64,000 nt of DNA from an uncultured virus (IMG/VR IMGVR_UViG_3300048865_000024) (IMGVR_UViG_3300048865_000024), one strand, 5' to 3'. Shown: positions 11,047 to 14,225, counted from the stretch's first letter. Notes: generated from the sequence alone by a model not told the origin. A program made the numbers and translations.

Positions 11047-11255
11047 TGACCGACCCCGCCGAAATGATTGCATGGCTCGACCGCCGCATTGCCAGTGCCC
11101 AAACCTGGCTGGCTGACCACGGCCGCCGTTCGAAGAAGCCTCGTCCTGAAATGGAGATCGAGACCAAGGAATACGACATCGCTCGGTTCGAAGAGATCCG
11201 TGGCGCGTACCTGAAGGCGCTTGATCGCAGAGATCAGGCAGGGAGCGCGGCATGA
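11046..11255 (+). CDS. Hypothetical phage protein
   Basis: Coupled ORF. Confidence 0.65.
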   Translation: MTDPAEMIAWLDRRIASAQTWLADHGRRSKKPRPEMEIETKEYDIARFEEIRGAYLKALDRRDQAGSAA

Positions 11256-11257
11256 CC

Positions 11258-11443
11258 TCACTTGCTCATTCTCCGCGGGACCTCCTTGCCGGGCACCGGA
11301 TCGATGTCCGGTGGTGCCTCGTCCGGGCCTACGTCGGGCTCTGGCTCTTCGATCGGTGGCTCCGGCAGATCTGGCGGCACATCCGGCGGCATGTCTGGCG
11401 GGAATTCAGGGTCATTGGGCGTCGGGATAGGCGTCTTAGGCAT
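11258..11443 (-). CDS. Pro/Asp/Glu-rich small protein (antisense moron)
   Basis: RBS GAGGAGG and its own EcfG-type promoter. Confidence 0.7.
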   Translation of the reverse strand: MPKTPIPTPNDPEFPPDMPPDVPPDLPEPPIEEPEPDVGPDEAPPDIDPVPGKEVPRRMSK

Positions 11444-11466
11444 TCTGGCCTCCTCTTTGCTCGCGC

Positions 11467-11492
11467 AACCGATACTCGCCCGTGTTTGTTCC
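11467..11492 (-). promoter_or_regulatory. sigma-EcfG/RpoE2 promoter
   Basis: GGAAC-N17-GGTT. Confidence 0.65.
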
Positions 11493-11511
11493 GCGATCCG
11501 GGAGGTGAGGC

Positions 11512-12081
11512 GTGACCGAGTGGATCTTTGCCCCGCTTCTCCCGCTCCACTACGAGATGATCGTCATCGATTGCCCGTGGGATCACGAAGCTTATTCCGA
11601 AAAGGGATTGGGGAAGTCTCAACACGCGCACTACAACACGATGACCGACGACGAGATCTACTCCTTGCCGGTCGGTCAGCTCGCCTCCATGGATTCACTG
11701 TTGCTGGCATGGTCTACAGCGCCACGCCTCGACCGTGCCCTTGAAGCCGTCCGGAGATGGGGCTTTCAGTACAAGTCCTATCTCGTGTGGCGCAAGACGA
11801 CGCGGAGCGGCAAAGTCCGCATGGGCCCTGGGTACCGCGTCCGCACCACCGGTGAAATCGTCATCGTGGCAACGCTGGGGAATCCGAAGCAGGCGTTTGC
11901 TCCACCGACCATATTCGACGGCATCGCCCGCGAGCACAGCCGCAAGCCAGACGAATTCTATGACCTATGCGACCGCGTGATGCCGCACGCGCGGCGCGCC
12001 GACGTGTTTGCTCGAGAGAGCCGCCCCGGCTGGCATGCGTTCGGCAACGAGGTCACCAAGTTCAATGAGGTGGCAGCATGA
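11512..12081 (+). CDS. MT-A70 family adenine methyltransferase
   Basis: IDCPW (DPPW variant), WGFQYK, REHSRKP, FARE..GW..FGN. Confidence 0.9.
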   Translation: MTEWIFAPLLPLHYEMIVIDCPWDHEAYSEKGLGKSQHAHYNTMTDDEIYSLPVGQLASMDSLLLAWSTAPRLDRALEAVRRWGFQYKSYLVWRKTTRSGKVRMGPGYRVRTTGEIVIVATLGNPKQAFAPPTIFDGIAREHSRKPDEFYDLCDRVMPHARRADVFARESRPGWHAFGNEVTKFNEVAA

Positions 12082-12158
12082 TCAAACTCCACCTCCCATA
12101 CCAGCAGGGCTGGGAACAGAGAGGCCGCAACCGCAGCCTCTCATCGTCGACCGGTATC

Positions 12159-12461
12159 TTAGGCAGACACGCGTCCGCTGCCGGAGTTCGCTTTGATCAT
12201 CCAAGGAAGAACTGCAGGTGCTTTGACGAGGATGCCCTTTTTCTTTCCGAAGGATCGGAGGGCATCTCGCGCAACCTGAATGGGCTTGTGGCCGTCGTGG
12301 GCCATGTAGCAAGTCTTCAGGGTGGCGTCGTGCACGATGTCGCGGTCGCGCTCCGGCCACTCCTCAAGAAACTCGATAGCATCATACAGGCTCGTAATCT
12401 CTCTGATCAGGTCCTTTTTCTCCTTCAGGTAAACCGGTCGAGCAAACATCTTCGAGTTCAT
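12159..12461 (-). CDS. DUF982 family protein (antisense moron)
   Basis: FARPV..DAIEFLEEWP..AR.A..FGKKKGIL. Confidence 0.85.
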   Translation of the reverse strand: MNSKMFARPVYLKEKKDLIREITSLYDAIEFLEEWPERDRDIVHDATLKTCYMAHDGHKPIQVARDALRSFGKKKGILVKAPAVLPWMIKANSGSGRVSA

Positions 12462-12598
12462 TTCAGCCTCACTGAATACAACGGTGTTCAACAAGGAAGG
12501 CGCTGCGGACCAGCGCCCGCTGCTGATTTGTTGCCTTTGGCTTGTGGATTCAAGGGGTTGCGCGTTCGACCTTTGTCATTCCTGACCGGGGGCGCGGC

Positions 12599-12952
12599 AT
12601 GATCAAGCTTCACCTGCCATATCCGCCGAGCGGCTGGGATCTCTACGACGGCTGGGGTAAGACGCGTCGCCTGTCCCCCACGTACAAGAAGTGGAGGAAC
12701 GATGCCGGCTATTTCATCAAGGCCCCGAAGCAGGCGATCGATCAGCCTTTCGCGCTGCACGTCGCCCTGCGCCGTCAGAACATGCGGCAGGACATCGACA
12801 ATCGCTCAAAGGCAATCCTCGACTGCCTGCAGCACTATGGCGTCATCAAGAACGACAACCTCTGCGAACGCTTGACCATGTGCTGGGACAGCGACCTTCC
12901 GGCCGAGTGCGTCGTCATCATCCAGGTATGTGAAGAGGGGATGGCGGCGTGA
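12599..12952 (+). CDS. rusA: RusA-family Holliday junction resolvase
   Basis: LPYPPS..DIDNRSKAILD..GVIKND. Confidence 0.88.
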   Translation: MIKLHLPYPPSGWDLYDGWGKTRRLSPTYKKWRNDAGYFIKAPKQAIDQPFALHVALRRQNMRQDIDNRSKAILDCLQHYGVIKNDNLCERLTMCWDSDLPAECVVIIQVCEEGMAA

Positions 12953-13080
12953 AGCAACTGTTCAAGCATGCCCCAATGTATTGGCCGCGCCGGATGCTTG
13001 TGAGGGTTGGCCGCAGGGTTTCGGGAAATCGGGCCGCCGGCGAGCAAGCGCCGGCGGCTATGATTGTGCGAGGAACCGGA

Positions 13081-13323
13081 TCAGCGGTGATGATGGCCAA
13101 TATTGGCTTCCGCCGCTGTCTCCCCGACGGACATGGCTTTGATGAACGGCATCAACTGCCATACCGCGGACGCGCCGACCAGAACGTAAACGATCCTGGA
13201 AACGGCAGCATCCTGGCCGCCGAACAGAGCCGCCACGAGGTCGAACTCGAAGAGTCCTACCAAAAGCCAGTTCAGTCCGCCGACGATGATGAGAAAGAGT
13301 GTGATGAGATTAAACGCGCGCAA
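13081..13323 (-). CDS. DUF378 membrane protein (antisense moron)
   Basis: IVGGLNWLLVGLFEFDLVAALFG..SRIVYVLVG. Confidence 0.9.
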   Translation of the reverse strand: MRAFNLITLFLIIVGGLNWLLVGLFEFDLVAALFGGQDAAVSRIVYVLVGASAVWQLMPFIKAMSVGETAAEANIGHHHR

Positions 13324-13355
13324 GTGCTTCTCCTAAGTGGGTTGGAAGCGCATCA

Positions 13356-13380
13356 AACGTCGCGCATGTCAGAACGTTCC
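13356..13380 (-). promoter_or_regulatory. sigma-EcfG/RpoE2 promoter
   Basis: GGAAC-N16-CGTT upstream of DUF378. Confidence 0.8.
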
Positions 13381-13472
13381 CGTCCCCTAAACAAAAAGCG
13401 CGATGGCGAGTGCTGGTGCAGCGATTTCCTCGCTGGGAGCGATGTCCATGTATGCCAAGAGGGGATGGTCGC

Positions 13473-14225
13473 GTGAGCATTTCTGCCGCCATCCGCCGTA
13501 TGTTGGAGGCCGGTCTTACGATCGACCAAGCCCTTGTGGCTGCCGAGGCTTTCGAAGCTGAGGCTGAAACGGTTCCGGCCGTCGATCGTGCTGCCGAGAA
13601 GCGGCGGCAGTGGGATCGCGAGCGTAAGCGGAAACAGCGGAATTCCGCTATGTCCGGTGGAAGTCCGGTGGAAACAGGTGGAAGTCAGGTGGACGTGGGG
13701 GCCCTTTCCTCCCCGGAGGTTTCCCCCCACACCCCCCTTCCTAACCCCTCCAATCCTATACCCCCTTCGCCCCCTAAAGGGGGCTCTTCCCCCACGGCGG
13801 TCGACCAGGTCGTCACCGCGTTTTCGGACATGGCCCGTCGGTCCGGCCTCTCGGTGCCAAGGGCGGTCACCCAATCTCGCCGCCGCTCGTTGCTGCTGCG
13901 GATCGAGGAACACGGTCTCCCTGCCGTCCTCGATGCCATCGAGCGGATCGGCCGCAGCCGGTTCTGCCGTGGCGAAAACGACCGGGGATGGCGTGCCGAT
14001 CTCGACTTCCTCTGCCAGCCGAAGAGCTTCGTCTCGATCCTCGAAGGAAAATACGACGACCGGCCGTTGCAGCAATCGCAATCGCCGCCCCGGCCTCAAA
14101 GCCCTTCCATGCAACGCCACCACGACATCCACGCAAGGCTGAAACGAGAACTCTACGGTGAACCAGATGAACAATTTGCCGGCCAAACTGTCGACCTTGC
14201 AGCAGGAGATTTCCGCTCTCACTGA
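13473..14225 (+). CDS. Phage replication initiator-like protein
   Basis: GENDRGWRADLDFL..LEGKY C-terminal domain; position in the module. Confidence 0.7.
   Translation: MSISAAIRRMLEAGLTIDQALVAAEAFEAEAETVPAVDRAAEKRRQWDRERKRKQRNSAMSGGSPVETGGSQVDVGALSSPEVSPHTPLPNPSNPIPPSPPKGGSSPTAVDQVVTAFSDMARRSGLSVPRAVTQSRRRSLLLRIEEHGLPAVLDAIERIGRSRFCRGENDRGWRADLDFLCQPKSFVSILEGKYDDRPLQQSQSPPRPQSPSMQRHHDIHARLKRELYGEPDEQFAGQTVDLAAGDFRSH

Follow-up and report, generated by a model that had tools for sequence, protein, structure and literature searches.

The DNA considered here is a 64,000-nucleotide stretch from an uncultured virus (IMG/VR IMGVR_UViG_3300048865_000024), referred to as the window. Its GC content is about 60%, and the part around the finding is the early region of a rhizobial, Ensifer-type prophage. 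The sense genes of this region form a chain in which start codons overlap the preceding stop codons. Three antisense genes lie within the chain, each beneath a stop-free open reading frame (ORF) on the sense strand that joins the flanking sense genes. These sense ORFs are named relay ORFs. S1 (11252..11515, plus strand, 87 aa) begins with ATGA and ends with GTGA, S2 (12078..12602, plus strand, 174 aa) begins and ends with ATGA, and S3 (12949..13476, plus strand, 175 aa) begins and ends with GTGA. Each is a multiple of three in length and is joined to its neighbour at either end by an NTGA overlap. In the remaining two sense frames there are 0 and 3 stops across the S1 interval, 5 and 7 across the S2 interval and 7 and 7 across the S3 interval. 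The original prediction, made from the sequence, had described three stop-free sense ORFs, each over an antisense gene and NTGA-joined on both sides, and its coordinates proved correct.

Beneath S1 lies a proline-rich ORF of 61 aa (11258..11443, minus strand). It belongs to no Pfam or PHROG family; the AT skew is reversed over it and it is probably a real small gene. S2 covers a DUF982 gene of 111 aa (12159..12494, minus strand; Pfam E 3.7e-20) resembling a solved structure (PDB 2kpq, E 6e-4). S3 covers a DUF378 gene encoding a small membrane protein of 80 aa (13081..13323, minus strand; Pfam E 2.6e-24). Coding scores are −1.2 for S1, −0.2 for S2 and 10.2 for S3, against 7.5, 24.6 and 20.8 for the respective antisense ORFs. 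The possibility that the sense ORFs are the true genes at S2 and S3 was rejected because of the Pfam matches of DUF982 and DUF378 and a substitution pattern favouring the antisense frame; the resemblance to 2kpq also counts against S2. The region upstream of the DUF982 gene (12495..12598) forms the C-terminal part of S2 and ends in a G-rich Shine-Dalgarno-like run and the ATGA of the next gene, rusA. Each antisense gene shares its codon boundaries with the sense ORF above it, a codon alignment that the original prediction did not mention. With this alignment, a sense stop can arise solely from a TTA, CTA or TCA codon of the antisense gene. None of the 17 leucine and serine codons of the DUF982 gene and none of the 15 of the DUF378 gene in the window is of this kind.

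The chain was walked from 10663 and every link was crossed without a gap. The first link is a gene of 127 aa without a known family (10663..11046, plus strand), sharing a 1-nt TGATG overlap with a gene of 69 aa (11046..11255, plus strand) whose stop is overlapped by the start of S1. Homologues of the latter gene sit 5′ of S-type ORFs in loci L067, L073, L079 and L080. An MT-A70 DNA methyltransferase (11512..12081, plus strand; Pfam E 2.8e-29; phrog_359) stands between S1 and S2. A RusA-like Holliday junction resolvase of 117 aa (12599..12952, plus strand; Pfam E 3.7e-07; phrog_34, 1.1e-18) stands between S2 and S3; the closest genomic RusA is that of Ensifer adhaerens L18 (89% aa identity). 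A replication initiation/helicase-loader (DnaD/O-like) protein follows (13473..14225, plus strand; phrog_10469, 1.1e-18; phrog_345, 3.5e-17), its start overlapping the stop of S3. The seven successive junctions from 11046 to 13476 are all stop–start overlaps (one TGATG and six NTGA), so that start codons lie on preceding stops as in a coupled operon, and the same chains were found in L069, L074, L076, L079 and L080. Every gene end in these operons is a G-rich Shine-Dalgarno-like run followed by NTGA. Also encoded in the same prophage operon are a NusG-like protein (15245-15949; Pfam NusG, E 2.5e-09), a GcrA-like regulator (14940-15365; E 2.3e-14) and a GapR-like DNA-binding protein (8898-9626; E 1.7e-35). 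All three represent phage-borne versions of transcription and cell-cycle factors of alphaproteobacteria, and the NusG-like protein may be relevant to how termination is controlled in the operon. The nearest virus record (G001) did not match the region. Named phages have only rusA and short stretches in common with it (72-78%).

Composition accounts for part of the arrangement. Crude gene calling over the window gave 74 genes, with TTA, CTA and TCA accounting for 99 of 15,373 codons; 31 of these genes contain none. Synonymous resampling gave probabilities of an open body of 0.90, 0.43 and 0.51 for cassettes 1, 2 and 3. An open frame over the gene body alone is ordinary in DNA of about 60% GC. 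Shuffling of the flanks gave probabilities of openness of 0.63, 0.32 and 0.086. Of 23 similarly sized genes, 15 have an open aligned antisense frame, and just 2 are open in each non-aligned frame. That the aligned frame starts on the upstream stop has a chance of 1/3, as has its ending on the downstream start, and the joint chance of three exact frame-joined bridges is about 1e-5. This is a post hoc estimate from one window, and independent data were therefore sought in relatives. All three relay ORFs share with shadow ORFs the codon alignment with an opposite-strand gene. Their length and boundaries are not explained by codon usage alone, given the joint chance above and the stop counts in relatives. 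Three other antisense ORFs of the window, 432, 309 and 333 aa long, lie over sense genes (8481-9779, 10324-11253 and 13353-14354, minus strand). In GC-rich DNA such shadow ORFs are unremarkable; some of the three extend across gene boundaries in frames that are not codon-aligned.

The bridge recurs in related phages. Of 19 IMG/VR loci with DUF982 (65-99% aa identity), 17 have an aligned sense frame that spans the gene together with both flanks. Including the window, 14 distinct DUF982 contexts with varying upstream and downstream neighbours were found: 12 run from NTGA to NTGA, another has its stop 1 nt short of the following ATG, and the last (L070/71) is broken. The DUF982 upstream flank measures 99, 105, 108, 114, 129 or 135 nt in the relatives, always a multiple of three and stop-free in the relay frame. 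Over the flanks, no relay-frame stop was counted, compared with 58 and 48 stops in the other two frames. For DUF378, all six GC-rich loci are bridged, with the S3-type bridge in L051-L056. Eight distant DUF378 loci (L057-L060 and L062-L065), on contigs of 33-44% GC from other virus types and with 5-13 sense-frame stops, were left out of the embedded counts, as was L061, which is cut by a contig end. The proline-rich cassette has an NTGA-to-NTGA bridge in 27 of 30 IMG/VR loci; two of the remaining loci are cut by contig ends and one uses another open frame. Locus L072 contains three tandem antisense DUF982 genes (3001-4172 in locus orientation; Pfam E 9.2e-18 and 2.7e-19 for the extra two). They are spanned by two consecutive relay ORFs of 302 and 168 aa, the second of which has a methyltransferase-like C-terminus.

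Bridges were also found over other inserts. Genome G343 keeps cassette 1 and the methyltransferase, followed by a 21-codon rusA remnant that opens a 409-codon stop-free relay over a 361-aa antisense MrcB_N/NOV_C-like gene. The rusA slot there (L050 7219-9013, G343:C16) holds the rusA 5′ remnant, the antisense MrcB_N/NOV_C-like gene, a 63-aa gene and a DUF1064 protein, which may be a replacement resolvase. An antisense HNH gene of 265 aa (PADLOC type IV methyl-directed restriction enzyme, E 1.9e-17) recurs 5′ of the region homologous to the window, in five variants of 67-88% nucleotide identity (L088, L091, L094, L099 and L100), and is bridged every time by a relay of about 300 codons. The relay ends exactly on the next start in 5/5 DUF378, 5/5 HNH and 2/2 MrcB-like contexts. 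A survey of GC-rich viral loci detected 36 antisense islands. The strict bridging test was passed by 23 of them, and five more passed on inspection, with mis-called starts or 1-nt spacing. Antisense genes outside a chain are not bridged. A DUF4145 gene of the window (17569-18234, minus strand; match to PADLOC PD-T7-4, E 2.2e-10) has two stops in the aligned frame and gaps of about 200 and 140 nt to the sense genes. An antisense gene at L002 938-1198, outside the chain, has two stops, and the broken context L070/71 has one stop and gaps of about 10-13 nt in place of overlaps.

The stop codons of the relay frame are depleted in the relatives. In 20 embedded instances of DUF982, DUF378 and MrcB-like genes, one TTA, CTA or TCA codon was observed and 14.1 were expected. 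The original prediction had called for a test of stop depletion against codon controls; for the gene bodies in the window, the resampling probabilities given above make openness ordinary, and the depletion appears in the comparison with relatives. The rate is 1/268 leucine and serine codons in embedded genes compared with 13/294 in 20 non-embedded chromosomal homologues (Fisher p 0.0019), a comparison that supports the proposed selection for an open sense frame. Nine of the 20 chromosomal homologues, which lie outside opposite-strand operons, carry at least one such codon. Homologous cassettes within NTGA chains hardly ever contain sense stops, the point on which the original prediction had staked itself: 1/14 distinct DUF982 contexts and 0/5 DUF378 contexts have them. 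Twelve distinct bridged DUF982 genes have no CTA, TTA or TCA among 157 leucine and serine codons. The same genes use CTT 23 times, TCT 14 times, AGT 10 times and TTG 29 times, and more than one synonymous codon occurs in 11 of 14 conserved leucine and serine columns. Each HNH variant lacks the three codons (1.0-1.5 expected), and HNH and MrcB-like genes together have none compared with 8.1 expected (P 3e-4). In crude calls of the viral loci, the three codons make up 3.2% of leucine and serine codons of antisense genes and 6.4% of those of operon-strand genes (p 3.6e-6). The direction agrees across every openness test. The comparison of related phages suggests that the bridges are kept by selection, not by chance.

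The cassettes behave as morons, that is, accessory genes inserted between conserved phage genes: at a fixed slot they are present in some relatives and absent from others. In L003 (E. adhaerens L18), the replication gene overlaps the end of rusA directly, with no cassette between them. In L054, the methyltransferase adjoins rusA without DUF982, yet DUF378 is present. L068 has DUF982 without rusA or DUF378. The part combinations in L054 and L068 indicate that the cassettes are independent, and they rule out a single block of DUF982, rusA and DUF378 that replaced the middle of a resident rusA.

Both ends of rusA recur inside the relay ORFs. The C-terminus of S3 is an in-frame rusA 3′ remnant (13410..13476, plus strand), which holds the Shine-Dalgarno-like run and the GTGA of the replication gene. 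Positions 12921-12952 and 13445-13476 are identical in 27 of 32 nt. In local alignment, rusA nucleotides 281-354 matched 13410-13476 with a score of 25, which none of 500 shuffles equalled (best 20). The first 13 or so codons of S2 are an in-frame rusA 5′ remnant (12078..12115, plus strand), where local alignment with rusA nucleotides 1-41 scored 21 (0/500 shuffles equal, best 17). Gaps total 6 nt in the 3′ copy and 3 nt in the 5′ copy, so both are in frame. The reported copies of rusA ends in S2 and S3 are thus real. The accompanying idea that cassettes integrate by duplicating the ends of their neighbours holds in part. The appearance of duplication arises only where a full gene copy adjoins the cassette. 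This is so in the window and also in L079, where the relay carries the 5′ end of a small gene that also comes after the cassette. Elsewhere, there is only a remnant. The rusA 5′ remnant is kept in L068 and G343 though no rusA follows downstream, and the relay of L073 contains a 47-codon 5′ remnant of a 392-aa methylase. The 5′ ends of rusA are joined to two different cassettes, its 3′ ends to the DUF378 and (L095) proline-rich cassettes, and in L098 an S2 tail is joined to S1. Frame is preserved at no fewer than seven different remnant joints. The general rule is an in-frame remnant of whichever sense gene broke at the joint. Remnants were detected by translating the relay frame.

The substitutions show which frame is constrained. 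In the DUF982 body, 546, 77 and 128 substitutions fall on relay codon positions 1, 2 and 3, the pattern of purifying selection on the DUF982 frame. The DUF982 flank has an even distribution (87, 76 and 101). In the proline-rich body, 25, 13 and 13 of 61 sites each are variable at the three relay codon positions, and antisense third positions vary most. This trend is weaker than in DUF982; internal indels are 3, 12 and 21 nt long. S1, S2, S3 and the 409-aa relay of G343 matched no Pfam or PHROG family, and no wide protein search was made. Purifying selection on the amino acid sequence of the relays was not detected. Judged from these patterns, the relay products look unconstrained, and what is preserved is openness, frame and ends alone, which speaks against genuine dual coding. 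The suggestion that the cassettes could seed dual-coding genes gained no support, as the relay amino acid sequences evolve without constraint.

GC-rich hairpins lie within S2 and S3, 3′ of the moron stop codons. The one behind DUF982 (12119..12142) has −22.6 kcal/mol on the minus strand (z −2.1) and lacks a U tract; the stretch is conserved in other DUF982 cassettes. The one behind DUF378 (13032..13059) has a stem of 10-11 bp, also without a U tract, with −31.2 kcal/mol on the plus and −26.7 kcal/mol on the minus strand (z −2.8 and −3.1). Directly 5′ of the DUF982 start is a further hairpin (12498-12518, minus strand), whose GGCGC/GCGCC stem recurs in other cassettes. It may regulate DUF982 translation. 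A promoter scan gave no sigma-70-like site and no excess over shuffles, and seven terminator-like sites compared with 6.2 expected are likewise no excess over shuffles. Parts of the region match 19 RNA runs; four were examined, all as contigs without strand information. Three soil metatranscriptome runs (X2-X4) have a depth of just 2-7 over the region. A size-fractionated RNA library of a related organism (X12, unstranded) reaches a depth of up to about 3,900 over the DUF982 body. Its contigs at 12274-12431 have depths of about 1,100-3,300, compared with about 100 over the flanks, which may be due to high expression or to a stable RNA fragment.

Taken together, we consider it rather probable that the early operon is an NTGA chain in which antisense inserts are bridged by translated, product-free relay ORFs that keep coupling and prevent polarity. 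Accessory genes may enter the chain backwards through illegitimate recombination inside sense genes. An antisense insert alone would break the chain, would leave 250-1,200 nt of untranslated sense RNA as a substrate for Rho and would put the GC hairpin 3′ of the moron on the sense transcript. In the arrangements that survive, what is left of the broken sense gene runs in frame into the codon-aligned complement of the insert, and this joint frame is stop-free and terminates precisely at the start codon of the sense gene that follows. Ribosomes moving through the insert could then terminate and reinitiate at the next NTGA. Relay translation would leave Rho no untranslated stretch and would melt the moron hairpin on the sense transcript. 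The cost would be borne by the moron, in which TTA, CTA and TCA would be forbidden. The relay ORFs are probably translated during lytic expression; coupling or anti-polarity as the selected effect would fit the architecture.

The arrangement might also be read without selection for translation, as a few modules that were open by chance and spread by recombination at gene-end linkers. Such an origin would suit the many window genes without TTA, CTA or TCA and the aligned frames that are open in most small genes, the antisense ORFs, 300-430 aa long, that overlie sense genes in other parts of the window, the nearly identical S1 module in 27 loci and the common ...GAGG-N-NTGA linker of gene ends. 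It seems quite unlikely all the same, for no stops have been gained although aa identity among the cassettes has fallen to 65-75% and synonymous codons have turned over, and chromosomal homologues of the same families do have stops. Flank lengths that differ by multiples of three, the variety of in-frame remnant joints and the same bridge over five unrelated moron families also speak against common descent of a few open modules. If the frame were instead selected only for Rho shielding or hairpin suppression, the NTGA ends would simply be the general style of the operon. The GC hairpins just 3′ of the morons within S2 and S3 are consistent with this, as are the NTGA ends of all operon genes, real or relay, and a NusG-like gene that points to termination control. 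Shielding would not require exact stop–start ends, and the relay ends exactly on the next start in 12/14 DUF982 contexts and 27/30 proline-rich loci, besides all DUF378, HNH and MrcB-like contexts. Nearly all relays stopping there is a hint that reinitiation matters beyond Rho shielding. The hairpins, moreover, lack U tracts and terminators are not in excess, so that shielding as the sole function is unlikely. As true second genes of dual-coding loci, the relay ORFs would have functional products. Start codons, Shine-Dalgarno-like runs and conserved boundaries are present, and the central S1 peptide is nearly invariant among loci. The S1 conservation, however, equals the nucleotide conservation of its antisense ORF, with third positions most variable, and the N-termini of the relays are interchangeable remnants of unrelated genes. 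With the missing protein families and the substitution patterns of the DUF982 body and flank, functional second products are highly improbable.

Several points weigh against translated, product-free relays that were kept by selection. The coding score of S3 is positive. Cassette 1 is weak alone, since two of three sense frames are open there and its body was expected to be open (P 0.9). Homologous cassettes share ancestry, so that counts of loci and codons are non-independent and the p-values optimistic. Expected values and the survey of antisense islands rest on a crude codon-score gene caller, and only the 23 strict passes stand without inspection among the 36 islands, eight of which are unbridged or unclear. 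A remnant search by relay-frame translation would miss out-of-frame remnants. If the NusG-like protein confers termination resistance, polarity would matter less. The unstranded RNA contigs have no bearing on sense read-through or relay translation.

The components of this system have known counterparts. As with phage morons in general, the DUF982, DUF378, HNH and MrcB-like genes are present or absent at the same slots in related phages, are slightly lower in GC and are in several cases defence-like. They differ in their antisense orientation within a tightly packed chain of overlapping ORFs, in lying each under a stop-free sense ORF and in having no recognisable promoter or U-tract terminator in the scans made here. 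Termination–reinitiation at ATGA overlaps couples translation in many bacterial and phage operons. The junctions of the chain resemble such operons, being all NTGA or TGATG with a Shine-Dalgarno-like run inside the preceding ORF. In contrast to them, three of eight examined links of the window (4/10 in the nearest relatives) have no constrained product and exist only as a gene complement with gene remnants. Compositional shadow ORFs of GC-rich DNA share the codon-aligned antisense frame and the rarity of TTA, CTA and TCA. Unlike these, relay ORFs cross both flanks, start and stop exactly on their neighbours, are fused to in-frame remnants and have a stop depletion exceeding that expected from codon usage and from chromosomal homologues. 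In certain leader or upstream ORFs, the act of translation, not the product, blocks Rho-dependent termination; such ORFs are short and located at operon starts. The logic proposed here is similar, with ribosome traffic protecting downstream expression, but the relays are 87-409 codons long and lie mid-operon over functional antisense genes. Long antisense overlapping gene pairs of Pseudomonas aeruginosa are translated and are reported to be under purifying selection on the protein (PMC8850804). These pairs share the GC-rich genome and the long antisense ORF fully overlapping a gene, and they differ from the relays, which are constrained on openness and not on amino acids. The parts are familiar (morons, stop–start coupling, shadow ORFs and Rho-blocking leaders). 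For their combination, in which long mid-operon ORFs constrained only in openness and frame overlie functional antisense accessory genes and bar certain codons from them, no description was found in the open-access full-text literature searched.

If the relays are translated, selection on frame openness alone would shape phage mosaics and the codon usage of accessory and defence genes. Annotators would meet long ORFs that are neither gene nor noise, and in-frame gene fragments at module joints would be explained. As one and the same change can be silent in one gene while creating a stop in the other, the relays would also offer a clean experimental handle on translational coupling and Rho polarity in phages of alphaproteobacteria. 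It may be a general rule for GC-rich temperate phages that backwards genes fit chained operons only beneath a translated, sequence-free relay; we see this generalisation as evenly poised between holding and failing. If true, inserted genes would be under a hidden synonymous-codon constraint excluding TTA, CTA and TCA, in-frame remnants would be normal scars of phage mosaicism and high GC would make antisense insertion affordable.

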